Assembly: GCF_030013595.1 (NCBI RefSeq)
Contig: NZ_CP122768.1
From: Escherichia coli
GTDB lineage: Bacteria > Pseudomonadota > Gammaproteobacteria > Enterobacterales > Enterobacteriaceae
Length of the DNA: 64,000 bases
Strand: one strand, 5' to 3'
Under the pieces are notes generated by a model. That model saw only the letters and a program-made list of their open reading frames with translations. It had not been told where the DNA came from and did no database searches. The position numbers were made by a program, and so were the translations under genes. Numbering within the stretch: the stretch's first letter is position 1; each line of letters opens with the position of its first letter. Positions 1 to 29,922 of the stretch are shown here, piece after piece.

Positions 1-549
1 TGGCAGGGGCGACAGTATCAGCCGTATCCCATTCAGGGGAGTGGTTTTGAACTGAATGGCAAAGGCACCAGTACGCGCCCCACGCTGACGGTTTCTAACC
101 TGTACGGTATGGTCACCGGGATGGCGGAAGATCTGCAGAGTCTGGTCGGCGGAACGGTGGTCCGGCGTAAGGTTTACGCCCGTTTTCTGGATGCGGTGAA
201 CTTCGTCAACGGAAACAGTGACGCCGATCCGGAGCAGGAGGTGATCAGCCGCTGGCGCATCGAGCAGTGCAGCGAACTGAGCGTGGTGAGTGCCTCCTTT
301 GTACTGTCCACGCCGACGGAAACGGATGGCGCTGTTTTTCCGGGACGTATCATGCTGGCCAACACCTGCACCTGGACCTATCGCGGTGACGAGTGCGGTT
401 ATAGCGGTCCGGCTGTCGCGGATGAATATGACCAGCCAACGTCCGATATCACGAAGGATAAATGCAGCAAATGCCTGAGCGGTTGTAAGTTCCGCAATAA
501 CGTCGGCAACTTTGGCGGCTTCCTTTCCATTAACAAACTTTCGCAGTAA
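1..549 (+). CDS. Phage minor tail protein L (5' end outside window)
   Basis: Frame open from nt 1; translation ...GSGFELNGKGTSTRPTLTVSNLYGMVTGMAEDLQSLVGG... resembles lambda gpL; precedes K-I-J. Confidence 0.8.
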   Translation, partial: WQGRQYQPYPIQGSGFELNGKGTSTRPTLTVSNLYGMVTGMAEDLQSLVGGTVVRRKVYARFLDAVNFVNGNSDADPEQEVISRWRIEQCSELSVVSASFVLSTPTETDGAVFPGRIMLANTCTWTYRGDECGYSGPAVADEYDQPTSDITKDKCSKCLSGCKFRNNVGNFGGFLSINKLSQ

Positions 550-554
550 ATCCC

Positions 555-1298
555 ATGACACAGACAGAATCAGCGATTCTGGCGCACGCCCGGCGATGTG
601 CGCCAGCGGAGTCGTGCGGCTTCGTGGTGAGAGCGCCGGAGGGGGAACGATATTTTCCCTGCGTGAATATTTCCGGTGAGCCGGAGGATTATTTCCGGAT
701 GGCTCCGGAGGACTGGCTGCAGGCAGAGATGCAGGGTGAGATTATGGCACTGGTCCACAGTCATCCCGGTGGTCTGCCCTGGCTGAGTGAGGCTGACCGG
801 CGGCTGCAGGTGCAGAGTGATTTGCCGTGGTGGCTGGTCTGCCGGGGGGCGATTCATAAGTTCCGCTGTGTGCCGCATCTCACCGGGCGGCGCTTTGAGC
901 ACGGGGTGACGGACTGTTATACGCTGTTCCGCGATGCCTATCATCTTGCAGGTATCGATTTGCCGGATTTTTACCGACATGATGACTGGTGGAAATCAGG
1001 TCAGAATCTCTATCTGGATAATCTGGAGGCCACAGGGCTGTATCAGGTGCCGTTGTCAGCGGCGCAGCCGGGCGATGTGCTGCTGTGCTGTTTTGGTTCA
1101 TCGGTGCCGAATCATGCCGCCATTTACTGTGGTGACGGCAAGCTGCTGCACCATATTCCTGAACAACTGAGCAAACGAGAGAGGTATACCGACAAATGGC
1201 AGCGACGCACACACTCCCTCTGGCGTCACCAGGCATGGCACGCATCTGCCTTTACGGGGATTTACAACGATTTGTCCGCCGCATCGATCTGCGTGTGA
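555..1298 (+). CDS. Phage tail assembly protein K (NlpC/P60 plus JAB/MPN type)
   Basis: 247-aa ORF with HSHP metalloprotease-like and Cys/His motifs typical of gpK; 3' end overlaps gene I, and the true stop may define a shorter product. Confidence 0.8.
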   Translation: MTQTESAILAHARRCAPAESCGFVVRAPEGERYFPCVNISGEPEDYFRMAPEDWLQAEMQGEIMALVHSHPGGLPWLSEADRRLQVQSDLPWWLVCRGAIHKFRCVPHLTGRRFEHGVTDCYTLFRDAYHLAGIDLPDFYRHDDWWKSGQNLYLDNLEATGLYQVPLSAAQPGDVLLCCFGSSVPNHAAIYCGDGKLLHHIPEQLSKRERYTDKWQRRTHSLWRHQAWHASAFTGIYNDLSAASICV

Positions 1299-1837
1299 AA
1301 ACGGGGGCCGAAGCTATCCGGGCGCTGGCCATGCAGATCCCGGCGTTTCGTCAGAAGCTGAGCGACGGCTGGTATCAGGTACGCATTGCCGGGCGTGATA
1401 CAGGTGAAACGGAATTATCAGCCCGTCTTAATGAACCGCTGGCAAATGGTGCTGTGATCCATATCGTGCCGCGTCTGGCAGGAGCCAAAAGTGGCGGTGT
1501 GTTTCAGGCTGTGCTGGGGGCGGCTGTTATGGCGGTTGCTATATGGATGCCGGGGGTAGGAATTATGGCGAGTAATCTGCTGTTTTCTCTCGGTGCCAGT
1601 ATGACGCTTGGCGGTGTTGCACAGATGCTGGCCCCTAAACCCAAAACCCCCCGCACACAGACAACGGATAACGGCAAACAGAATACGTATTTCTCCTCAC
1701 TGGATAACATGGTTGCCCAGGGCAATGTTCTGCCCGTTCTGTACGGTGAAATGCGCGTGGGGTCGCGGGTGGTTTCTCAGGAGATCAGCACGGCAGACGA
1801 AGGGGATGGTGGTCAGGTTGTGGTGATTGGTCGCTGA
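1196..1837 (+). CDS. Phage tail assembly protein I
   Basis: 213 aa starting MAATHTLPLASPGMARICLYGDLQRF, ending ...GEMRVGSRVVSQEISTADEGDGGQVVVIGR, as in lambda gpI. Confidence 0.85.
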   Translation: MAATHTLPLASPGMARICLYGDLQRFVRRIDLRVKTGAEAIRALAMQIPAFRQKLSDGWYQVRIAGRDTGETELSARLNEPLANGAVIHIVPRLAGAKSGGVFQAVLGAAVMAVAIWMPGVGIMASNLLFSLGASMTLGGVAQMLAPKPKTPRTQTTDNGKQNTYFSSLDNMVAQGNVLPVLYGEMRVGSRVVSQEISTADEGDGGQVVVIGR

Positions 1838-1897
1838 TACAACATGTTTTATGTGAAACCGCCTGCGGGCGGTTTTATCGTTTATGGAGCATGACGA

Positions 1898-4800
1898 ATG
1901 GGTAAAGGCAGCAGTAAGGGGCATACCCCGCGCGAAGCGAAGGACAACCTGAAATCCACGCAGCTGCTGAGTGTGATTGATGCCATCAGCGAAGGGCCGG
2001 TTGAAGGTCCGGTGGATGGATTAAAAAGCGTGCTGCTGAACAGTACGCCAGTGCTGGACAGTGAGGGGAATACCAACATCTCCGGCGTCACGGTGGTGTT
2101 CCGGGCCGGTGAGCAGGAGCAGACACCGCCGGAGGGATTTGAATCCTCCGGCTCCGAGACGGTGCTGGGTACGGAAGTGAAATACGACACGCCGATCACC
2201 CGGACCATCACGTCGGCAAACATTGACCGACTGCGTTTTACCTTCGGCGTGCAGGCACTGGTGGAAACCACCTCAAAGGGGGACAGGAATCCGTCGGAAG
2301 TCCGCCTGCTGGTTCAGATACAGCGTAACGGTGGCTGGGTGACGGAAAAAGACATCACCATTAAGGGCAAAACCACCTCGCAGTATCTGGCCTCGGTGGT
2401 GGTGGGTAACCTGCCGCCGCGCCCGTTCACTATACGGATGCGCAGGATGACGCCGGACAGCACCACAGACCAGCTGCAGAACAAAACGCTCTGGTCGTCA
2501 TACACCGAAATCATCGATGTGAAACAGTGCTACCCGAACACGGCACTGGTCGGCGTGCAGGTGGACTCGGAGCAGTTCGGCAGCCAGCAGGTGAGCCGTA
2601 ATTATCATCTGCGCGGGCGTATTCTGCAGGTGCCGTCGAACTATAACCCGCAGACGCGGCAATACAGCGGTATCTGGGACGGAACGTTTAAGCCAGCATA
2701 CAGCAACAACATGGCCTGGTGTCTGTGGGATATGCTGACCCATCCACGCTACGGCATGGGGAAACGTCTTGGTGCGGCGGATGTGGACAAATGGGCGCTG
2801 TATGTCATCGGCCAGTACTGCGACCAGTCGGTGCCGGACGGCTTTGGCGGCACGGAGCCGCGCATCGCCTGTAATGCGTACCTGACCACACAGCGCAAGG
2901 CCTGGGATGTGCTCAGTGATTTCTGCTCGGCGATGCGCTGTATGCCGGTATGGAACGGGCAGACGCTGACGTTCGTGCAGGACCGACCGTCGGATAAGGT
3001 GTGGACCTATAACCGCAGTAATGTGGTGATGCCGGATGATGGCGCACCATTCCGCTACAGCTTCAGCGCCCTGAAAGACCGCCATAATGCCGTTGAGGTG
3101 AACTGGATTGACCCGGATAACGGCCAGGAGACGGCGACAGAGCTTGTGGAGGACTCGCAGGCCATTGCCCGTTACGGTCGTAACGTCACGAAGATGGATG
3201 CGTTTGGCTGTACCAGCCGGGGGCAGGCGCACCGCGCCGGGCTGTGGCTGATTAAAACAGAACTGCTGGAAACGCAGACCGTGGACTTCAGCGTGGGTGC
3301 CGAAGGGCTTCGCCATGTACCGGGCGATGTCATTGAAATCTGCGATGATGACTATGCCGGTATCAGCACCGGCGGGCGCGTGCTGGCGGTGAACAGCCAG
3401 ACCCGGACGCTGACGCTCGACCGTGAAATCACGCTGCCATCCTCCGGCACCACGCTGATAAGCCTGGTTGACGGAAGTGGCAATCCGGTCAGCGTGGAGG
3501 TCCAGTCCGTCACCGACGGCGTGAAGGTGAAAGTGAGCCGGGTTCCTGACGGCGTTGCCGAGTACAGCGTGTGGGGGCTGAAGCTGCCGACGCTGCGCCA
3601 GCGCCTGTTCCGCTGTGTGAGTATCCGTGAGAACGACGACGGTACGTATGCCATCACTGCAGTGCAGCATGTACCGGAGAAAGAAGCCATCGTGGATAAC
3701 GGGGCGCACTTTGACGGTAACCAGAGCGGCACGGTGAATGGTGTCACGCCGCCAGCAGTGCAGCATCTGACCGCAGAAGTCACCGCAGACAGCGGGGAAT
3801 ATCGGGTGCTGGCCCGCTGGGACACGCCGAAGGTGGTGAAGGGCGTGAGCTTCCTGCTTCGCCTGACCGTGGCAGCGGATGACGGCAGTGAGCGGCTGGT
3901 CAGCACGGCCCGGACGACGGAAACCACTTACCGCTTCACACAACTGGCTCTGGGGAACTACAGGCTGACAGTCCGGGCAGTAAATGCGTGGGGGCAGCAG
4001 GGCGATCCGGCGTCGGTATCGTTCCGGATTGCCGCACCGGCAGCGCCGTCGCGGATTGAGCTGACGCCGGGCTATTTTCAGATAACCGCCACGCCGCATC
4101 TTGCGGTTTATGATCCGACGGTACAGTTTGAGTTCTGGTTCTCGGAAAAGCGGATTGCGGATATCAGGCAGGTTGAAACCACAGCACGCTATCTTGGCAC
4201 GGCGCTGTACTGGATAGCCGCCAGTATCAATATCAAACCGGGCCATAATTATTATTTTTACGTTCGCAGTGTGAACACCGTTGGCAAATCGGCATTCGTG
4301 GAGGCTGTTGGTCAGCCGAGTGATGACGCATCCGGCTATCTGGATTTTTTCAAAGGCGAGATAGGGAAAACCCATCTGGCTCAGGAGCTGTGGACGCAGA
4401 TTGATAACGGTCAGCTTGCGCCTGACCTGGCTGAAATCAGGACGTCCATTACGGATGTCAGCAATGAAATCACACAGACCGTCAATAAGAAACTGGAAGA
4501 CCAGAGTGCAGCAATTCAGCAGATACAGCAGGTTCAGGTTGATACAAGTAATAACCTGAACAGCATGTGGGCTGTGAAGTTGCAGCAGATGCAGGACGGA
4601 CGCCTTTATATTGCGGGTATCGGTGCCGGTATTGAGAACACCCCCGACGGCATGCAGAGTCAGGTGCTGCTGGCGGCAGACAGGATTGCGATGATTAATC
4701 CTGCAAATGGCAACACAAAACCGATGTTTGTTGGTCAGGGTGATCAGATATTCATGAATGAAGTGTTCCTGAAATATCTGACGGCTCCCACCATTACCAG

Positions 4801-5377
4801 CGGCGGTAATCCTCCTGCATTTTCCCTGACACCGGACGGAAAGCTGACCGCTAAAAATGCAGATATCAGTGGCAGTGTGAATGCGAACGCCGGGACGCTC
4901 AACAACGTTACGATAAATGAAAACTGTCAGATTAAAGGGAAACTGTCAGCCAACCAGATTGAAGGCGATATTGTCAAAACAGTGGGTAAGGCTTTCCCGC
5001 GGGACTCCCGGGCACCGGAGCGGTGGCCATCAGGGACCATTACCGTCAGGATTTATGACGATCAGCCGTTTGACCGGCAGATTGTTATTCCGGCGGTGGC
5101 ATTCAGCGGTGCTAAACATGAGAGAGAGCATACTGATATTTACTCCTCATGCCGCCTGATAGTGAAGAAAAATGGTGCTGAAATTTATAACCGTACCGCG
5201 CTGGATAATACGCTGATTTACAGTGGTGTTATTGATATGCCAGCTGGTCACGGCCACATGACGCTGGAGTTTTCGGTGTCAGCATGGCTGGTAAATGACT
5301 GGTATCCCACAGCAAGTATCAGCGATTTGCTGGTTGTGGTGATGAAGAAAGCCACCGCAGGCATCAGTATCAGCTGA
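1898..5377 (+). CDS. Phage tail tip / host specificity protein J
   Basis: 1159-aa ORF directly after I; size, position and fibronectin-III-like central region match lambda gpJ. Confidence 0.9.
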
Positions 5378-5395
5378 ATTTTATAACCCATATAC

Positions 5396-5420
5396 GGGCG
5401 CCAGAAATGGCGCCTTTTTT
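5396..5420 (+). terminator. Rho-independent terminator after J
   Basis: GGCGCC-AGAAAT-GGCGCC hairpin followed by TTTTTT. Confidence 0.6.
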
Positions 5421-5444
5421 ATTGCAGAAAAGCGAGAGGTAATT

Positions 5445-6044
5445 ATGCGTAAAGTTTGTGCAGCCATTTTGTCCACAGCCATCTGTCTGGCCGTATCCGG
5501 TGCGCCTGCATGGGCGTCTGAGCAGCAGGCCACACTGAGCGCAGGGTATCTTCATGCCCGTACGAACGCTCCCGGCAGCGATAATCTGAACGGGATTAAC
5601 GTGAAATACCGTTATGAGTTTACGGACACGCTGGGGCTGATTACGTCATTCAGTTATGCCAACGCTGAAGATGAGCAAAAAACGCATTACAGCGATACCC
5701 GCTGGCATGAAGATTCCGTGCGTAACCGCTGGTTCAGCGTAATGGCGGGGCCGTCTGTGCGCGTGAATGAATGGTTCAGCGTGTATGCGATGGCGGGTGT
5801 GGCTTACAGCCGTGTGTCGACTTTCTTCGGGGATTATCTCCGCGTAACTGACAACAAGGGGAAAACGCACGATGTGCTGACCGGAAGTGATGACGGTCGC
5901 CACAGCAACACGTCTCTGGCGTGGGGGGCTGGCGTGCAGTTTAACCCGACCGAATCCGTGGCCATTGATATTGCTTATGAAGGCTCCGGCAGTGGTGACT
6001 GGCGCACTGACGGTTTCATCGTGGGTGTCGGTTATAAATTCTGA
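5445..6044 (+). CDS. lom: Lom outer-membrane protein (Ail/Lom/OmpX beta-barrel family), prophage moron
   Basis: 199 aa with signal peptide and C-terminal ...GVGYKF beta-barrel ending; sits between J and stf as in lambda. Confidence 0.9.
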
Positions 6045-6070
6045 TTAGCCAGGTAACACAGTGTTATGAC

Positions 6071-6098
6071 AGCCCGTCGGTTCAGGCGGGCTTTTTTG
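6071..6098 (+). terminator. Rho-independent terminator after lom
   Basis: GC stem (gcccg/cgggc) followed by TTTTTT just before stf. Confidence 0.55.
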
Positions 6099-6108
6099 TG
6101 GGGTGAAT

Positions 6109-9100
6109 ATGGCAGTAAAGATTTCAGGTGTACTGAAAGACGGCACAGGAAAACCGGTACAGAACTGCACAATCCAGCTGAAAGCAAAACGTAACAGCAC
6201 CACGGTGGTGGTGAACACGCTGGCCTCAGAAAATCCGGATGAAGCCGGGCGTTACAGCATGGACGTTGAGTACGGTCAGTACAGCGTTATTCTGTTGGTG
6301 GAAGGATTCCCGCCGTCACATGCCGGGACCATCACCGTGTATGAAGACTCCCGACCCGGTACGCTGAATGATTTTCTCGGTGCCATGACGGAGGATGATG
6401 CCCGGCCAGAGGCACTGCGCCGTTTTGAGCTGATGGTGGAAGAGGTGGCGCGTAACGCGTCCGCGGTGGCACAGAACACGGCAGCCGCGAAGAAGTCAGC
6501 CGGCGATGCCGGCACATCAGCCCGTGAGGCGGCAACCCATGCGACTGATGCTGCAGGCTCAGCACGCGCAGCCAGCACGTCAGCCGGACAGGCCGCGTCG
6601 TCGGCTCAGTCAGCGTCTTCCAGCGCAGGAACGGCATCAACAAAGGCCAGTGAAGCATCGAAAAGTGCTGCTGCTGCAGAGTCCTCAAAAAGCGCGGCAG
6701 CTACCAGTGCCAGTGCCGCGAAAACGTCAGAAACGAATGCCGCAGCGTCACAACAATCAGCAGCCACTTCTGCATCCACCGCGACCACGAAAGCGTCAGA
6801 AGCTGCCACCTCAGCCCGGGATGCGGCGGCCTCAAAAGAGGCAGCGAAATCATCAGAAACGAACGCATCCTCGAGCGCCAGTAGCGCAACTTCCTCGGCA
6901 ACGGCGGCAGGAAATTCCGCGAAGGCGGCAAAAACGTCCGAGACGAACGCTAAGTCTTCTGAGACGGCAGCGGGACAGAGCGCCTCAGCTGCGGCAGGCT
7001 CAAAAACAGCGGCTGCATCATCTGCCAGCGCCGCGTCAACAAGTGCCGGGCAGGCCTCAGCCAGTGCCACCGCCGCCGGAAAATCGGCAGAAAGCGCCGC
7101 ATCATCCGCTTCAACAGCCACAACGAAGGCTGGCGAAGCCACTGAACAGGCCAGCGCAGCAGCGAGTTCTGCTTCCGCAGCGAAGACATCCGAAACGAAC
7201 GCGAAAGCGTCGGAAACCAGCGCAGAATCCTCAAAAACGGCTGCCGCATCGTCAGCCAGTTCGGCGGCGTCATCGGCATCATCGGCGTCTGCTTCAAAAG
7301 ATGAGGCGACCAGACAGGCGTCAGCAGCGAAGGGCAGCGCCACGACAGCATCCACGAAGGCGACAGAGGCAGCTGGTAGTGCGACAGCGGCAGCTCAGAG
7401 CAAAAGTACGTCGGAATCTGCAGCAACGCGTGCCGAGACAGCAGCAAAACGGGCAGAGGATATTGCATCTGCCGTGGCGCTTGAGGATGCGAGCACGACG
7501 AAAAAGGGGATAGTACAGCTCAGCAGTGCGACCAACAGTACGTCTGAAACGCTGGCGGCAACGCCAAAGGCAGTAAAATCAGCCTATGACAATGCAGAGA
7601 AACGTCTGCAGAAAGACCAGAACGGCGCTGATATACCCGATAAGGGACGCTTCCTGAACAACATTAACGCGGTCAGTAAAACAGACTTTGCTGATAAGCG
7701 TGGTATGCGTTATGTGCGGGTTAACGCTCCTGCAGGTGCAACATCTGGAAAATATTACCCTGTTGTTGTTATGCGTTCTGCTGGCTCAGTAAGCGAACTG
7801 GCATCAAGGGTCATTATCACCACGGCAACGCGAACCGCAGGCGATCCGATGAATAACTGCGAGTTTAACGGATTTGTTATGCCTGGTGGCTGGACTGACA
7901 GGGGGCGTTATGCTTATGGAATGTTCTGGCAATATCAAAACAATGAACGAGCCATCCACTCAATAATGATGAGTAATAAGGGCGATGATTTGCGCTCTGT
8001 GTTCTATGTTGATGGCGCTGCTTTCCCTGTTTTTGCGTTTATCGAAGATGGCCTGTCAATATCCGCACCTGGTGCTGATCTCGTTGTTAATGATACGACC
8101 TATAAGTTTGGGGCAACAAATCCAGCGACTGAATGTATCGCGGCGGACGTTATCCTTGATTTTAAGAGTGGGCGTGGTTTTTATGAGTCTCATTCGTTAA
8201 TCGTTAACGATAATTTGTCGTGCAAAAAACTTTTTGCCACAGACGAAATTGTAGCGCGTGGTGGTAATCAGATTCGAATGATAGGTGGGGAGTATGGTGC
8301 ATTATGGCGTAATGATGGCGCTAAAACTTACCTGCTGCTTACCAATCAAGGTGATGTTTATGGTGGCTGGAATACATTAAGACCGTTTGCTATTGATAAC
8401 GCAACCGGCGAACTGGTTATTGGAACCAAACTGTCCGCAAGTCTGAACGGTAATGCATTAACAGCAACAAAGCTGCAAACGCCAAGACGGGTTTCTGGTG
8501 TTGAGTTTGATGGTTCCAGAGATATTACTTTAACCGCCGCGCATGTGGCTGCTTTTGCCAGAAGGGCAACGGATACATATGCCGATGCGGATGGTGGCGT
8601 TCCCTGGAATGCCGAATCAGGTGCTTACAATGTCACCCGCTCTGGCGACAGCTATATTCTGGTTAACTTCTATACCGGAGTCGGAAGTTGCCGGACCCTG
8701 CAGATGAAGGCGCATTACAGAAATGGTGGTCTGTTCTACCGTTCTTCAAGAGACGGTTATGGTTTTGAGGAAGACTGGGCAGAAGTTTATACCTCGAAAA
8801 ATCTTCCACCAGAAAGCTACCCAGTCGGCGCACCAATCCCGTGGCCATCAGATACCGTTCCGTCTGGTTATGCCCTGATGCAGGGGCAGACTTTTGACAA
8901 ATCTGCTTACCCGAAACTTGCAGCCGCTTATCCGTCAGGCGTGATCCCTGATATGCGTGGCTGGACGATTAAGGGCAAACCTGCCAGTGGTCGGGCCGTA
9001 TTGTCTCAGGAACAGGACGGCATTAAATCGCATACCCACAGCGCCAGCGCATCCAGTACGGATTTGGGGACGAAAACCACATCGTCGTTTGATTACGGCA

Positions 9101-9459
9101 CTAAATCCACGAATAACACCGGGGCGCATACCCATAGTGTTAGCGGTACGGCTGCTTCAGCCGGTGCACATACCCATTCGATGACATTTGTTTCAGGTGG
9201 TTCCAGTGGTGCTCCGGGAAGTGGAGCATCTGATTATTCTAAATACAGTGTTAACACTTCTTCTGCAGGCGCTCATACGCACTCTGTATCGGGTACTGCT
9301 GCAAGCGCAGGTGCACACGCACATACTGTGGGTATTGGTGCTCATACGCACTCCGTTGCGATTGGTTCACATGGACACACCATCACCGTTAACGCTGCTG
9401 GTAACGCGGAAAACACCGTCAAAAACATCGCATTTAACTATATTGTGAGGCTTGCATAA
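6109..9459 (+). CDS. stf: Side tail fibre protein Stf (long form)
   Basis: ORF track starts at a GTG (6103); likely ATG at 6109 giving [17 protein letters not shown]... Contains a long Ala/Ser/Thr-rich repeat region and a C-terminal His-rich GAHTHS repeat block. Confidence 0.9.
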
Positions 9460-10034
9460 TGGCATTCAGAATGAGTGAACAACCACGGACCATAAAAATT
9501 TATAATCTGCTGGCCGGAACTAATGAATTTATTGGTGAAGGTGATGCATATATTCCGCCTCATACAGGTCTGCCAGCAAACAGTACCGATATTGCACCGC
9601 CAGATATTCCGGCTGGCTTCGTGGCTGTTTTCAACAGTGATGAGTCATCGTGGCATCTCGTTGAAGATCATCGGGGTAAAATGGTTTATGACGTGGCTTC
9701 CGGCGACGCGTTATTTATTTCTGAACTCGGTCCGTTACCGGAAAATGTTACCTGGTTATCGCCGGAAGGGGAGTTTCAGAAGTGGAACGGTACAGTCTGG
9801 GTGAAGGATACGGAAGCAGAAAAACTGTTCCGGATCCGGGAGGCGGAAGAAACAAAAAACAGCCTGATGCAGGTAGCCAGTGAGCATATAGCGCCACTTC
9901 AGGATGCTGTAGATCTGGAAATCGCAACGGAGGAAGAAACCTCATTGCTGGAAGCCTGGAAAAAGTATCGGGTGTTGCTGAACCGTGTTGATACATCAAC
10001 TGCACAGGATATTGAATGGCCAGCACTGCCGTAG
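9459..10034 (+). CDS. tfa: Tail fibre assembly protein Tfa
   Basis: 191 aa, start overlaps stf stop (TAATG); Tfa-family chaperone immediately after stf. Confidence 0.9.
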
Positions 10035-10131
10035 GGTAAAACATATAAATTCTATAATTAGATGTATCTTTCCATTTACGGCAAGGAAGGGGGCTTGGAA
10101 GACGTAAAGCATCTCACACCGAGATTATTTT

Positions 10132-10722
10132 TTATATGTCAGGTGTCTGAAGTTTTGCTTTGGCTCTTAAAATGGTTTGCCGCGAGGTTTTGAATTCCCG
10201 GGCAATGGCACTTATACTTACACCTGACTTAATTCGTTCGAATACCACCTGTTTCTGTTCTTCATTTAACACAGGTGGTCGACCAAAACGTTTCCCTGCG
10301 CCGCGGGCTCTTACTATCCCGGAATGAGTGCGTTCAAGTAAAAGGTCTCGTTCAAATTCAGCGACTGCTGAAATTACGTGCATCATCATTTTTCCTGTTG
10401 GACTGGTCAGGTCAATGCCCCCCAATGCTAAGCAATGCACTCTGATACCTGTTTCGGTCAGTTGTTCCACTGTTTTCCTGATATCCATTGCATTACAACC
10501 AAGGCGATCCAGTTTTGTCACAATCAATTGATCACCACATTTCAGGCGAGCAAGCAACCGGTTAAAACCAGGACGCTCACTGGTTGCTGCTGAGCCGCTA
10601 ATGTGTTCTTCGATTATTTGCTGAGGTTTGATTTTAAAACCTGCACTTTCGATTTCCCGGCGTTGATTTTCGGTGGTCTGATCCAGCGTTGATATCCGAC
10701 AGTAAGCAAAAATTCGAGACAT
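10132..10722 (-). CDS. pin: Pin-type serine DNA invertase (Hin/Gin/Cin family)
   Basis: 196 aa [15 protein letters not shown]... with resolvase catalytic Ser region and C-terminal HTH; convergent with tfa, as pinQ/pinR in K-12 prophages. Confidence 0.9.
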
Positions 10723-11038
10723 AGTGAGACTCTATACGAAATTGGTGTTCATATCATAATGCATCTCAGAAAATAATTTTGATTATTTTTGTGCATATTT
10801 GTATGTACACGTTCGAAAATAAACGAATGCGTATGCAACCCCGTAATTTTGGTGAGACCCAAAATCGATTTTGTGAAAAATGGCTTTAACTCGGTTTGTT
10901 TTTCGAGTTCCGGGCAGACTCAAGGAAGAAGAATAGTGTTGCGTGTTATTTTAACCAGATTTCAATTTGTTTGGTCGTGGAAAAGTGGAGCAAAATGTTG
11001 TTAAAGTGGAAAAATGATAAAAAAGTAAGTTTGTTATA

Positions 11039-11272
11039 TTACATTTTACCATTTAAATTTTGGTTGTCTTTAAGAACTGATATCGCTGTTTGTAATAATT
11101 CTTTGTTATCCAGCCATGATTTTTTCTTTATGTTTCCTTCAATGTAATCAAGCAATGTTCTGGTATTGATAGGTCTTCCCTGTTTTGCTACTTCCACTAC
11201 AGCATCCCCTAGGATAATTCTTACTTCAGGAAGCTGCGCAGGGAACCACTTTAGGGTGTCTTTTGATTTCAT
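11039..11272 (-). CDS. ydfK: Prophage cold-shock-induced protein YdfK/YnaE family
   Basis: ORF track gives 88 aa; product recalled as 77 aa starting MKSKDTLKWFPAQLPEVRIILGD, so the start is placed at 11272. Confidence 0.7.
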   Translation of the reverse strand: MKSKDTLKWFPAQLPEVRIILGDAVVEVAKQGRPINTRTLLDYIEGNIKKKSWLDNKELLQTAISVLKDNQNLNGKM

Positions 11273-12056
11273 GAAGATATTCCTTAAAATATTATTGATT
11301 TTCATTGCGATATTGTATGTCTGATTCAGGATATGTTGACTTATACATCGGTTTTGTCTGGGTTATTGGATATGCCAATCCCTAATTTTATTAGGGCATG
11401 ACTAAAAATGCTGAATATGATAAGGAGAGAAGTGATTATCAGTATGCTGTTCATATAGCCTCGAATTAGTAATGTGTTATATATGATATAGTTGACAATT
11501 TTTATCTTGGGTGTTCTTAAAGTTCGTAGATAAACATTGTCGTTTCAGGTATACAGGAATGCTAACAGGTGGCGGCAAAAATCAGGCGGTTTATGGCGCA
11601 ATCTGAAGTGGCAACTGCAAACTATCTTATGCAGAGACTCTACACGGATTGGGTTTAAAAGTATACATAGATAACAATTTTTATCTGAAGAAGAAAAATA
11701 TCAAGGTGATATAGCCTATATGCCTTTGATGCGGAGGAATGAATGTGATGGGAGTGATGTATCTGAATAGTTGAAAAACCGCAGACACGCCTTATGCAAG
11801 AACGTGCTGCGGTTGGCTGGTAAATTTTTCGATAGTGCGAGTATTGAATGATTTCCAGCCGTTATTGATTTTACGCGTAAATCCATGAAAAAACTACTTA
11901 TCTGTTGGGGAGTTTTTTGGGGCATATATGGGACAGAAATAGGCCCCAGATAGACACTGAGATCGAACTTAGGATGCTTTTAAAAAAATGCAACTATCTG
12001 AAAAAACCTAGAAAACGCCAAGGAAACCACAGGATGGGAAAAAACACCTGTGAATT

Positions 12057-23649: not shown

Positions 23650-23693
23650 ACCATACGCACAGAATGTGATGCCAGCACTCTGTGCGTATGCTT

Positions 23694-24392
23694 TTATCGC
23701 GGGAAAAAGTACTTTACCTGGAACTCGAAAATATTGCTGTAAAGTAACGAATAATCCAGCGGAATAGAGTTACTGTCCACAGCCTGGGTCTGAATTTTAA
23801 GTATGGGATCCCGTGGGCTGATCCGTAAAATACTGGCGATTTCTGGGGTAGGAAAAGTAGGGGAGAAAGTTTCAAAGGTGCCAATGATTTTGATCCCGCA
23901 TTCGTTCTCAATATACGAAAATTTGGATTTTTGCATATGTGCTACGGTTAAATCAGGAAAACGTGCCACTGACATCCACGTTTCTTCTAATTGTGCTGCA
24001 TTATCCTCAATGAATCGCAGTCTCTTTATGTAATAAACCTGCTCACCAGTCACTAAATTCAGCTCAGTCGCAATAGGGGGAGAAGCATCCTGCACTTCAA
24101 ATTTCATAATCTGACTTCCTGCCTCCTTGCCGCTTTTATGCGCAATTTCACTGAAGCTGTTCATGTGATCAATGTGTGCAACAAAATTCTTTTTTTGAAT
24201 ATATGTTCCTGAACCATGCTTTCTATGAATAATTCCTTCGCCTTCCAGCAAGGATAATGCCTTACGCAGGGTATTACGCGAAACATTATAACGAACAGCG
24301 AGTTCAGCTTCTGACGGCAACAAATCACCAACATGCCATGAATAGCCATTGATCTCGGATTTAAGTAAGCGGGCAATCTTTTGAAAAATCAC
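23694..24392 (-). CDS. bgcR: GntR/HutC-family regulator (UTRA effector domain) of the beta-glucoside islet
   Basis: 232 aa; N-terminal GntR HTH (LPSEAELAVRYNVSRNTLRKAL); divergent from the PTS genes. Name recalled from the described bgc operon. Confidence 0.7.
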   Translation of the reverse strand: MIFQKIARLLKSEINGYSWHVGDLLPSEAELAVRYNVSRNTLRKALSLLEGEGIIHRKHGSGTYIQKKNFVAHIDHMNSFSEIAHKSGKEAGSQIMKFEVQDASPPIATELNLVTGEQVYYIKRLRFIEDNAAQLEETWMSVARFPDLTVAHMQKSKFSYIENECGIKIIGTFETFSPTFPTPEIASILRISPRDPILKIQTQAVDSNSIPLDYSLLYSNIFEFQVKYFFPR

Positions 24393-24590
24393 TTTTGCAC
24401 CTTTTAAGAGCCATTGAAAACAAGGAGTTGAGTCCTGATTGGTTTATCGTATGGCCGAGTCGTTTAATTATTACCCTGATGTTGAACAACTTTATTGCTG
24501 TATTACTGTGATCAATGTACCAGGACGTATAGCTACTGCGGGATATGATATTTACACAATGTAATCTGTTATATACCAGTAAGGGAAAAT

Positions 24591-24902
24591 ATGAAAAAGA
24601 TATTGTTAGTTTGCGCTGCGGGCATGTCAACCAGTATGCTGGTTAAACGTATGATTGATCATGCTAACGCTATTTCACTTGAAGTTAATATTTCCGCATT
24701 GGCGATTGCAGAGGCTAAAGGGAAAATTAAAAATAACGAAGTTGACGTTGTTTTACTTGGCCCGCAAGTTCGCTTTCAGAAACCAGAGATTGAAGCTGTT
24801 GCACAGGGGAAAATGCCTGTAGCTGTTATCGAGATGAAAGACTATGGCACCATGAACGGACAGGCAGTTCTTGAATTTGCGATGAAACTACTGCAAGAGT
24901 AA
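24591..24902 (+). CDS. bgcE: PTS EIIB, lactose/cellobiose family
   Basis: 103 aa MKKILLVCAAGMSTSMLV with the IIB(Cel) phosphocysteine motif. Confidence 0.8.
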   Translation: MKKILLVCAAGMSTSMLVKRMIDHANAISLEVNISALAIAEAKGKIKNNEVDVVLLGPQVRFQKPEIEAVAQGKMPVAVIEMKDYGTMNGQAVLEFAMKLLQE

Positions 24903-25016
24903 GAATCTAATATTATTAAACTATTACCTGAACTAACTTTTCACACATCATAAAATGGATATGGCATACATGCTTTATTGGGATGTATAAATATCCAGAA
25001 CAACAGGTATAAAAAA

Positions 25017-26339
25017 ATGGGATTAATGACCTCATTCGAACGTGGAATGGAACGTTTTCTTGTTCCAGTTGCTATCAAGTTAAACTCACAAAAACATGTT
25101 GCAGCGGTGAGAGATGGATTCGTTTTTACGTTTCCAATTATCATGGCAAGCTCATTAATTATATTAATAAACTTTGCCATATTATCGCCAGACGGCTTTA
25201 TTGCCGGACTGCTGCATCTGAACAGCGTTTTTCCCAACCTTGAAAAAGCACAAGCTATTTTTACTCCGGTAATGAATGGCTCTGTAAATATCATGTCAAT
25301 TATGATTGCTTTCCTGGTCGCCAGAAATATGGCGATTAGCTATGAGCAAGATGATCTTTTATGCGGATTAACGGCAATAGGAGCATTTTTTATTGTTTAT
25401 ACGCCATATCAGATGATAGATGGGCAAGCATTCCTGACGACCAAATATCTCGGCGCACAGGGGTTGTTTGTTGCTGTTATCGTTGCATTAATCACCAGTG
25501 AAATATTTTGTCGCTTAGCTCGAAACCCAAAAATCACCATAACGATGCCGGCAGCTGTACCTCCTGCGGTAGCGCGTTCATTTAAAGTTTTATTGCCAAT
25601 ATTTTTTGTCATGGTGTTCTTTTCCGCACTTAATTATTGCCTGACACTGATATCCCCGGCAGGATTAAACGATCTCATTTACACATTAATCCAGACGCCG
25701 CTCAAACATATGGGAACGAATATCTTTGCGGTAATTATCCTGGGAGCTGTGGGTAATTTCCTGTGGGTGCTGGGTATCCACGGACCTAATACCACGTCGG
25801 CAATTCGAGAAACTGTTTTTTCTGAGGCTAATCTGGAGAATCTCTCCTGGGCCGCTCAACACGGCACTACCTGGGGCGCGCCATATCCGATTACCTGGAC
25901 TTCTATTAATGATGCATTCGCCAACTGCGGCGGTTCAGGTATGACGTTGGGATTATTGTTGGCTATTTTTATCGCGTCTAAGCGTGCGGAATACCGTGAT
26001 CTGGCAAAAATGTCGTTTATCCCCGGTATTTTCAATATCAATGAACCGATAATGTTCGGCCTTCCTATTGTACTTAACCCCATCATGATGGTGCCGTTTA
26101 TTCTGGTTCCCATTGTTAATTGTGCCATTGGTTACTTCTTTGTTTCGATGGAAATTATTCCACCGGTTGCTTATGCCGTGCCCTGGACTACGCCCGGACC
26201 TTTAATTGCTTTCCTCGGAACCGGGGGAAACTGGCTGGCGTTACTGGTGGGTTTTTTATGTTTAGGTGTGGCGACAATGATCTATTTACCTTTTGTTATT
26301 GCCGCCAACAAGGTCAATAACATGACAACTAACGGATAA
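25017..26339 (+). CDS. bgcF: PTS EIIC, lactose/cellobiose family permease
   Basis: About 440-aa polytopic membrane protein; start uncertain (ORF track starts at 24978; Met at 25017 or 25026 more likely). Confidence 0.8.
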   Translation: MGLMTSFERGMERFLVPVAIKLNSQKHVAAVRDGFVFTFPIIMASSLIILINFAILSPDGFIAGLLHLNSVFPNLEKAQAIFTPVMNGSVNIMSIMIAFLVARNMAISYEQDDLLCGLTAIGAFFIVYTPYQMIDGQAFLTTKYLGAQGLFVAVIVALITSEIFCRLARNPKITITMPAAVPPAVARSFKVLLPIFFVMVFFSALNYCLTLISPAGLNDLIYTLIQTPLKHMGTNIFAVIILGAVGNFLWVLGIHGPNTTSAIRETVFSEANLENLSWAAQHGTTWGAPYPITWTSINDAFANCGGSGMTLGLLLAIFIASKRAEYRDLAKMSFIPGIFNINEPIMFGLPIVLNPIMMVPFILVPIVNCAIGYFFVSMEIIPPVAYAVPWTTPGPLIAFLGTGGNWLALLVGFLCLGVATMIYLPFVIAANKVNNMTTNG

Positions 26340-26366
26340 TCCCATTTACACAGGAAGGAGATGTTG

Positions 26367-26678
26367 ATGTTTGCAGATGAAGAACTTGTTATGGAGTTAC
26401 TGATCAACGCGGGACAGGCACGTTCTGATGCGATGGAAGCCATACGTTGTGCCGGGCAAAAAGACTGGCAGGGCGCAACTCAGCTAATGGCCAGTTCGGA
26501 ATTAGCCTGTCTTCAGGCACATAAGATTCAGACCGCGTTAATTAGTCAGGATGAAGGTTGTGGCAAAATAGAAGTTAATTTAATTCTGGTTCATGCACAG
26601 GATCATTTGATGAATGCAATATTATGCCAGGATTTAGCCAGGGAAATTATTTCATTAAGAAAAGAGCTCCATCCCTGA
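26367..26678 (+). CDS. bgcI: PTS EIIA, lactose/cellobiose family
   Basis: About 104 aa; ...LVHAQDHLM... motif as in ChbA; GGAGG 7 nt upstream of this ATG. Confidence 0.8.
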   Translation: MFADEELVMELLINAGQARSDAMEAIRCAGQKDWQGATQLMASSELACLQAHKIQTALISQDEGCGKIEVNLILVHAQDHLMNAILCQDLAREIISLRKELHP

Positions 26679-26730
26679 TTTTTTCCTCCAGTGCGATAGC
26701 TGGAGGAAATTATTACACTCTTAAGGATAA

Positions 26731-29871
<3,141 letters not shown>

Positions 29872-29896
29872 GACTTCAGGAAGATATTACGGAGAT

Positions 29897-29922
29897 GTCA
29901 GGCTCTGTGATCAGAGCCTGAC
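29897..29922. terminator. Hairpin between convergent bgcA and marB
   Basis: Perfect 11-bp inverted repeat gtcaggctctg/cagagcctgac with a 4-nt loop. Confidence 0.5.

Follow-up and report, generated by a model that had tools for sequence, protein, structure and literature searches.

The first 12 kb of the window (the whole 64,000-nucleotide stretch of Escherichia coli contig NZ_CP122768.1 that was analysed) carry a run of phage genes that ends at the host gene ydfJ, which raises the question of what element they belong to and how much of it is preserved. The original prediction saw in them a complete lambdoid tail and tail-fibre module at the Qin prophage site. Open reading frame mapping and Pfam and NCBIfam profile searches assigned uninterrupted frames and strong family matches, far beyond chance, to K, I, J, lom, Stf, Tfa and the recombinase, and the frame positions given earlier for them were confirmed. 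A lambda-like prophage in the 5′ end of ydfJ has its distal end here, covering bases 1 to about 12056, and we put the probability that the region as a whole is explained as the intact tail-tip and side-tail-fibre end of such a prophage at the Qin site at about 0.9; nothing that contradicted the identification as a prophage end was found. The plus-strand genes would represent the end of the late operon (L, K, I, J, lom, stf, tfa), and the minus strand carries ynfT, ydfK and a PinQ/PinR-type serine recombinase gene, after which the prophage abuts the truncated ydfJ. The features are as follows.

1–549, plus strand: 3′ part of L (codons 51–232), in an open frame from base 1, matching positions 59–206 of the 206 in the Pfam Phage_tail_L profile
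555–1298, plus strand: K, tail-tip assembly protein, 247 aa, with JAB/MPN and NlpC/P60 domains
1196–1837, plus strand: I, tail-tip assembly protein, 213 aa from the ATG at 1196, Pfam Lambda_tail_I
1898–5377, plus strand: J, central tail fibre/tip attachment protein, 1159 aa, NCBIfam lambda_TipJ and six Pfam J domains
4982–5377, plus strand: J C-terminal receptor-binding domain, residues 1029–1159, Pfam Ig_GpJ_C, not of the lambda type
5445–6044, plus strand: lom, Ail/Lom-family outer-membrane beta-barrel, 199 aa, Pfam Ail_Lom (E = 2e-124)
6109–9459, plus strand: stf, side tail fibre, 1116 aa from the ATG, Pfam phage_tail_N, Gp34_trimer and Collar
9109–9258, plus strand: variable patch of the Stf tip, residues ~1001–1050, delimited by comparison with StfR
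9459–10034, plus strand: tfa, tail fibre assembly chaperone, 191 aa, Pfam Caudo_TAP (PF02413)
10132–10722, minus strand: PinQ/PinR-type small serine recombinase, 196 aa, Pfam Resolvase and HTH_7, convergent with tfa
11039–11272, minus strand: ydfK, 77 aa, mapped from K-12 coordinates, 100% identical to K-12 YdfK
11341–11454, minus strand: ynfT small ORF, 37 aa, mapped from the K-12 annotation, PHROG 35882
11817–12056, no strand: Qin-specific prophage end up to the ydfJ junction, set by homology limits
12057–13340, plus strand: ydfJ remnant, 427 aa, the host gene minus its first 28 codons and promoter

The insertion site was determined by comparison with occupied and unoccupied copies of ydfJ. 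In the empty-site strain CUVET16-321 the gene is intact (455 aa) and adjoins rspB, while the window copy starts at codon 29, and transporter profiles match it only from about position 37. A truncation of ydfJ by 28 codons has been described at the Qin site (PMC6379469). Identity to the unoccupied site begins at about 12052–12057, and the annotated boundary of K-12 Qin corresponds to position 12065. On the phage side, homology to K-12 Rac ends at 11816 and that to K-12 Qin continues through the Qin-specific arm, so that bases 9268–13500 are collinear with K-12 tfaQ-pinQ-ydfK-ynfT-ydfJ at 98.3% identity; this agrees with the empty-site comparison and upholds the predicted location. The end of the prophage had been set at 11305 and has to be moved, as this is merely the end of the open reading frame around ydfK and the prophage runs on through ynfT to about 12052–12057. 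No tRNA gene that might have been an integration target is present in the window.

The tail-tip genes follow the order L, K, I, J of the lambda module, all on the same strand and either abutting or overlapping. K and I are intact as predicted, but L is cut by the window edge at codon 51: 182 of its 232 codons are included, the first 50 lying beyond the edge. Nor does the window show a complete tail module: it opens inside L, the tail genes Z, U, V, G, T, H and M would be located before its first base, and the tail-tip and fibre end is all that it covers. The L segment is 98.4% identical to residues 51–232 of lambda L, K is 92% identical to lambda K across its 199 annotated residues and has the same length (247 aa) as K of phage PhiR34_1, and I shares 78% with lambda I. 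In RefSeq relatives the annotated start of I is the equivalent of 1235, which gives 200 aa. The claim of a full-length J of 1159 aa proved right, as its uninterrupted frame matches lambda_TipJ (NF049904) over profile positions 1–1163, that is, the full length, with 2378 bits against a cut-off of 1950. It contains FNIII-A, Phage-tail_3, two Ig domains, Phage_Tail_Tip and Ig_GpJ_C, and matches PDB 8iyk. L, K and I would build the tail tip and J would form its trimeric central fibre, the C-terminal domain of which would bind an outer-membrane protein; if the remaining prophage were expressed, the L-to-Tfa proteins would probably make a working tail tip.

The similarity of J to its lambda counterpart changes along the protein. 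Residues 1–800 show about 98% identity to lambda J, while the last 159 residues (1001–1159) show 45% and the receptor-binding domain proper (1029–1159) 41%; judged by its sequence, the tip is not of the lambda (LamB) type. The last 175 residues are 94–96% identical to those of J in VT1-Sakai (93.7%), the long-tailed Stx2a phages, PhiR55_1 (96%) and 2G7b, which are separate phages residing at sites other than ydfJ. The receptor-binding domain is 57% identical to that of an OmpC-binding A8 gpJ chimera (57–64% over the tip), and A8 gpJ uses OmpC (PMC11338833). These identities suggest a receptor other than LamB for this tip, OmpC being one possibility. The literature, including a paper on clinical EHEC phages, yielded no published receptor for the VT1-Sakai-type tip, A8 gpJ being the sole lead.

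The fibre genes that follow agree with the expected lom, long Stf (about 1117 aa) and Tfa, all in uninterrupted frames; an in-frame GTG at 6103 would extend Stf to 1118 aa. lom, located between J and stf and probably an accessory gene for an outer-membrane protein, encodes a product with 43% identity to lambda Lom and 91% to that of PhiR34_1. The lambda Stf, at 774 aa, is shorter than the Stf encoded here. The N-terminus is 80% identical to lambda orf-401 and contains the prophage tail-fibre domain PF08400 (E = 9e-72), through which Stf would attach to the tail tip, and residues 1–94 match the lambda tail-fibre chain of PDB 9e7m. Over its full length Stf is 96% identical to K-12 Rac StfR, the sole divergence being the patch at residues ~1001–1050 (27 of 54 identical, compared with 46–50 of 50 elsewhere). 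The comparison of C-termini proposed in the original prediction gave a VT1-Sakai-like, non-lambda J tip and an Stf that is close to StfR except for one patch. In sequence, the Stf tip resembles T4 gp37: residues 902–1116 match the gp37 tip 2XGF (E = 2e-90) with the collar and the His-x-His needle repeats kept, the latter being visible also in the DNA as repeat family D1. The middle of the tip (about 1005–1069) differs strongly from gp37, the variable patch falling inside the most divergent stretch of the alignment, and the rest of Stf is of lambda/Rac type, not T4 type. The start codon of tfa overlaps the stf stop codon at 9459, and its product, with 97% identity to both TfaQ and TfaR and 94% to lambda Tfa, would act as a chaperone in folding the Stf tip, the role that lambda Tfa shares with T4 gp38, the chaperone of gp37. 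By analogy with Ur-lambda, Stf would be expected to speed adsorption; binding to OmpC or lipopolysaccharide is a further trait of fibres of the Stf/Tfa and gp37/gp38 type. Since all frames are intact and plaque-forming phages have the same gene order, it is plausible that the tail-end genes specify functional host-range determinants, as had been proposed.

The serine recombinase gene had been called Pin. The intact 196-aa serine recombinase was borne out, the identity with Pin itself was not: the protein is 99.5% identical to PinR and 98.5% to PinQ, but shares only 38% with PinE of e14, and no invertible segment lies beside it. Gin, Cin, Pin and Hin are about 60–70% identical to one another. 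One might imagine here a Pin-type invertase that gives Stf two alternative tips with different host ranges, as happens in Mu, P1 and e14, since the K-12 orthologues bear the names pinQ and pinR, the catalytic serine motif of this small recombinase aligns with that of PinE and is followed by a C-terminal helix-turn-helix, the best match among solved structures is Mu Gin (E = 2e-30) and PHROG 125, to which the protein belongs, is labelled "DNA invertase". Against this, the protein reached the cut-off of no NCBIfam model, and the surroundings of the gene do not fit such a switch. tfa and the recombinase gene are 98 bp apart, which leaves no room for a second stf/tfa cassette, and it is the 3′ end of the gene, not the 5′ end, that faces the fibre genes. 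No convincing pair of inverted repeats bracketing the Stf tip was found in 8000–11400, and between stf and the recombinase gene there was neither a match to the Mu gix site (with up to 3 mismatches) nor a AAACCNNGGTTT core, which was derived from the inverted repeat found in e14. The invertible host-range switch was therefore rejected as extremely improbable; the recombinase is too distant from Pin and wrongly placed for a tail-fibre invertase. A different, tentative proposal is that the recombinase, ydfK and ynfT form a conserved cassette that ends live lambda-like phages (PhiR34_1), Rac and Qin, in which the recombinase could be active on some site yet to be found, and that the VT1-Sakai-type J tip recognises an as yet unassigned receptor; both parts together are possible, with the odds rather against them. 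YdfK is annotated in K-12 as a cold shock protein. Predicted promoters and terminators in 9400–12200 were no more numerous than in shuffled sequence, and no conclusion on transcription units was drawn from them.

K-12 carries two prophages related to this one. Its Qin element (b1543–b1579) occupies the same insertion site next to the same truncated ydfJ, but its match to the window begins only at base 8786, and a short stretch of the Stf tip (9152–9271), overlapping the variable patch, is unalignable with stfQ. It lacks L, K, I, J and lom, and StfQ has only 320 aa and adjoins nohA; the original prediction was right about the truncated stfQ and the missing J. All of these genes are kept in the window (L cut by its edge). 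Full-length relatives carry nohA through tfaQ at the same site, including the tail genes upstream of L, and in a comparison with such a relative K-12 Qin proved to be homologous as far as the nohA end and again from stf codon ~893, with a loss of about 24 kb in between. K-12 Qin is a deletion derivative of a window-type element, and the judgement that the present prophage is less decayed at its tail end is correct, as follows from the Qin site together with the loss of the nohA-to-stf stretch in K-12. The K-12 Rac right end (lomR-stfR-tfaR-pinR-ynaE-ynaM) aligns to 5687–11816 at 96.8% identity, with TfaR and PinR 97% and 99.5% identical to the window proteins. Rac is inserted in ttcA, an IS5 element interrupts its lomR, L-K-I-J are absent from it, and the final 240 bp on its way to the host junction bear no relation to those of the window.

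Because the lom-to-ynfT block is common to these elements, the tail end, instead of being inherited with the Qin-site prophage, might be a copy that homologous recombination brought in from a Rac-type or another lambda-like prophage of the same cell. The Rac alignment and the median of three L-K-I-J copies per E. coli genome would allow this, and the region is a mosaic, as the 213 mismatches to the best relative fall mostly in bases 1–4750 (0.8–11% per 250-base bin), with only about 14 in 4751–13500. We consider such copying unlikely, as 4751–13500 is near-identical to a relative with the same ydfJ junction and the Qin-specific 11817–12056 arm, and mosaicism is normal in lambda-like phages and does not require recent transfer. 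A further reading takes the element for a complete temperate phage that is inducible, with all modules intact and its tail genes actively used on new hosts. All visible phage genes are intact, the structural block of strain 2273-PO3 runs uninterrupted from nohA to the tail genes at the same site, and live phages share the module. The upstream structural, lysis and immunity genes of the present prophage, however, would lie beyond the window, as would intQ and the other ydfJ fragment at the far end, and several close relatives are damaged upstream, by IS66 in the head protease gene, an IS66-linked deletion from terminase to stf, IS1-bounded rearrangements and the loss of lysis genes next to IS1. 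Moreover, intQ is frequently mutated in Qin-site prophages (PMC6379469). A complete inducible phage is accordingly doubtful.

The arrangement occurs in live phages as well as in hundreds of sequenced E. coli genomes. Lambda (Ur-lambda) has the same gene order L-K-I-J-lom-stf-tfa, but no recombinase, ydfK or ynfT after tfa. PhiR34_1 (PV340559), which forms plaques and was grown on MG1655, ends its record with M-L-K-I-J-lom-stf-tfa, a PinQ/PinR-type recombinase gene, ynaE (YnaE family) and a small ORF; its Stf, Tfa and recombinase are 95, 96 and 98% identical to those of the window and its J 90% overall, with DNA homology lapsing over the J 3′ end (5000–5338), and the record stops at the equivalent of 11786, pointing to a different attachment arm. 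Plaque-forming PhiR34_1 (on K-12), 2H10 and mEp332 share this gene order, with lom-stf-tfa DNA 95–97% identical over the aligned part. Of 5426 complete E. coli genomes, 968 contain 80% or more of bases 1–12500 in one place, a count that mixes Qin-site and Rac-site copies, Rac-type elements sharing 94% of the query; among roughly the 1000 best records both kinds of copies occur. In the collections, the best hit matched the prophage end at 98.3% and the host flank at 99.3%, and for L-K-I-J alone the maximum was 96.9%. Qin-site prophages range from 11 to 97 kb across 189 strains (PMC6379469), and that K-12 Qin is what deletion has left of a widespread full-length type is already implied by published comparisons of them. 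The arrangement is already known, ordinary and common, and the region is of little importance unless the inducibility or host range of this strain's prophage is itself of interest; it does add one natural variant of J and Stf to those available for engineering lambda-based delivery particles. Rfam gave two matches only, IS009 within tfa and STnc560 in the flanking host DNA.

Bases 1-10034 of the plus strand are occupied by long open reading frames in close succession, all with strong family matches, and the genes next to ydfJ lie on the minus strand.

Gene content of the prophage end (coordinates in the window, strand, description)
1-549, +, L, 3′ part (182 of 232 codons; Phage_tail_L)
555-1298, +, K (247 aa; JAB and NlpC/P60)
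1196 or 1235-1837, +, I (213 or 200 aa; Lambda_tail_I)
1898-5377, +, J (1159 aa; NCBIfam lambda_TipJ, 2378 bits, cut-off 1950; six Pfam J domains)
5445-6044, +, lom (199 aa; Ail_Lom, E=2e-124)
6109-9459, +, stf (1116 aa; phage_tail_N, Gp34_trimer, Collar)
9459-10034, +, tfa (191 aa; Caudo_TAP)
10132-10722, -, serine recombinase (196 aa)
11039-11272, -, ydfK (position mapped from K-12)
11341-11454, -, ynfT (position mapped from K-12)

None of the reading frames of the visible phage genes is interrupted. The L product is 98% identical to residues 51-232 of lambda L, and since the frame is open at base 1 and the match begins at residue 51, the gene is cut by the window edge and its start lies outside. 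The original prediction of a complete tail module with an intact L stood for every gene except L, while neither the word "complete" nor the end coordinate could be kept. A 625-aa open frame runs antisense within J (2498-4375, minus strand) in the most G+C-rich part of the gene (58-62% G+C); base composition most likely accounts for this frame, which is then not a gene. A match to IS009, an Rfam family for a candidate small RNA, falls wholly within the 3′ half of tfa (9802-10000, +); it scored 226 bits, the gathering score being 117.

The boundary of the element was located by alignment with the empty site of strain CUVET16-321, where the gene order is rspA-rspB-ydfJ-ydfI and YdfJ is 455 aa long. 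The window is unrelated to this site as far as approximately 12052-12056. The two sequences become identical at the ATG in position 12057, corresponding to codon 29 of the undisrupted ydfJ; the annotated boundary of K-12 Qin maps to 12065. Therefore, the prophage extends approximately 750 bases beyond 11305, where its end had been placed. The loss of 28 codons of ydfJ agrees with a previous report (PMC6379469), and YdfJ is matched by transporter profiles only from about position 37.

In K-12, the Qin prophage shows the order ydfJ′-ynfT-ydfK-pinQ-tfaQ-stfQ (320 aa)-nohA without J, and its DNA aligns to the window solely from 8786 on (98.3% from 9268). When K-12 was compared with a full-length relative (L001), homology ended at the end of nohA and restarted at about codon 893 of stf, which corresponds to a deletion of approximately 24 kb relative to L001, counting the IS66 copy in this reference. 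The gene order and this comparison confirmed the original statement that K-12 Qin carries a truncated stfQ near nohA and no J, and the interpretation of the present prophage as less decayed at its tail end was supported. The K-12 Rac prophage has 5687-11816 in common with the window at 96.8%, with StfR, TfaR and PinR being 96%, 97% and 99.5% identical to their counterparts, respectively; only the final 240 bases before ydfJ are Qin-specific when compared with Rac.

The lom-stf-tfa DNA is covered 100% at 95% by the plaque-forming phage 2H10 and 96% at 97% by PhiR34_1 (PV340559), which was propagated on MG1655, and the values were similar for the plaque-forming mEp332. The PhiR34_1 record ends in the same gene order, M-L-K-I-J-lom-stf-tfa followed by a "PinQ/PinR-type serine recombinase", a YnaE family gene and a small ORF, and the Stf, Tfa and recombinase proteins of this phage show 95-98% identity to those of the window. 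The occurrence of nearly the same DNA in plaque-forming phages argues that the tail genes of the window are, as judged from their sequence, of working-phage quality.

Over residues 1-800, J has approximately 98% identity to lambda J; residues 800-950 diverge and contain indels, 951-1000 are again near-identical, and 1001-1159 show 45% identity. The C-terminal 175 residues of the window J show identities of 96% to J of PhiR55_1, 93.7% to that of VT1-Sakai and 93.7-94.9% to those of many long-tailed Stx phages, in contrast to ~49-50% for lambda and 434. The nearest tip among the solved structures is that of the chimera "A8 gpJ" (only 64% over 1001-1159 and 57% over the receptor-binding domain), which uses OmpC (PMC11338833); one might guess from this likeness that OmpC is also the receptor of the window J. 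Against the best E. coli relative, a mosaic breakpoint was observed at ~4750 (J residue ~950): most of the 213 mismatches fall in bases 1-4750 (0.8-11% per 250-base bin), and ~14 are spread over 4751-13500. The breakpoint coincides with the conserved J stretch directly before the receptor-binding end, in which the fusion point of the published chimera, lambda J residue 964, is also located (PMC11338833). An exchange of the J tip at this stretch would fit the drop in mismatches after 4750.

Residues 902-1116 of Stf match the T4 gp37 tip (2XGF, E=2e-90) with the His-x-His repeats retained, whereas the middle of the tip differs. The sole stretch departing from Rac StfR, residues ~1001-1050 (9109-9258), sits in the part most unlike T4 gp37, and K-12 stfQ DNA gives no alignment at 9152-9271, overlapping this variable patch. 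OmpC and/or lipopolysaccharide are the receptors of Ur-lambda Stf and T4 gp37, and the fibre chaperone of lambda is Tfa; by analogy, we infer that Stf and Tfa of the window may play similar roles.

The recombinase, called Pin in the original prediction, is orthologous to pinQ and pinR. No NCBIfam model matched it at the cut-off, and its best match among solved structures was Mu Gin (E=2e-30), with gamma-delta resolvase ranking lower. Its role as a host-range switch was rejected because it is just 38% identical to the characterised e14 Pin (PinE), it is convergent with tfa, towards which its 3′-end points, no second fibre cassette lies in the 98-base gap between them, and neither a crossover-site pair nor an invertible segment was found near the recombinase and stf. 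The recombinase-ydfK-ynfT cassette also lies at the end of PhiR34_1, a live phage, and of both Rac and Qin.

At least 80% of bases 1-12500 was found in one place in 968 of the 5426 complete E. coli genomes, with both Qin-site and Rac-site versions among these 968, and L-K-I-J alone occurred in 4195 genomes, the median number of places in a genome being three. In relatives, the ydfJ site contains nohA together with genes for terminase, portal, head and tail, followed by the stretch from L to tfaQ. Qin-site prophages range from 11 to 97 kb across 189 strains, the larger ones being richer in capsid, tape-measure and host-specificity genes (PMC6379469). Prophage ends of this kind are already known and very common in E. 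coli. Decay varies between lineages: one relative has IS66 within the head protease gene. At the same ydfJ site, strain W13-16 (L007, 6147-12160), which has the closest host backbone, shows an IS66-linked deletion that extends from the large terminase gene into stf; this decay arose independently of the K-12 deletion. In strain 2273-PO3 (L005, 1-33000), IS1 copies mark the joints of an odd arrangement made up of Qin late-regulatory genes, Rac-flanking host genes, early genes of Rac and the structural block of Qin, suggesting that the chromosome was rearranged between the two prophage regions.

In the host flank, the Hfq-binding small RNA STnc560 was matched over its full length (20939-21152, +, 280 bits), at a position that mapping from W13-16 places between dgcZ and the small ORFs mgtT/mgtS. 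A cluster at ~23650-29900, with coordinates mapped from the same strain, encodes a GntR regulator, PTS IIB/IIC/IIA, a carbohydrate porin and a 6-phospho-beta-glucosidase between eamA and marB. The latter two genes are neighbours in K-12, so the cluster looks like a strain-variable island.
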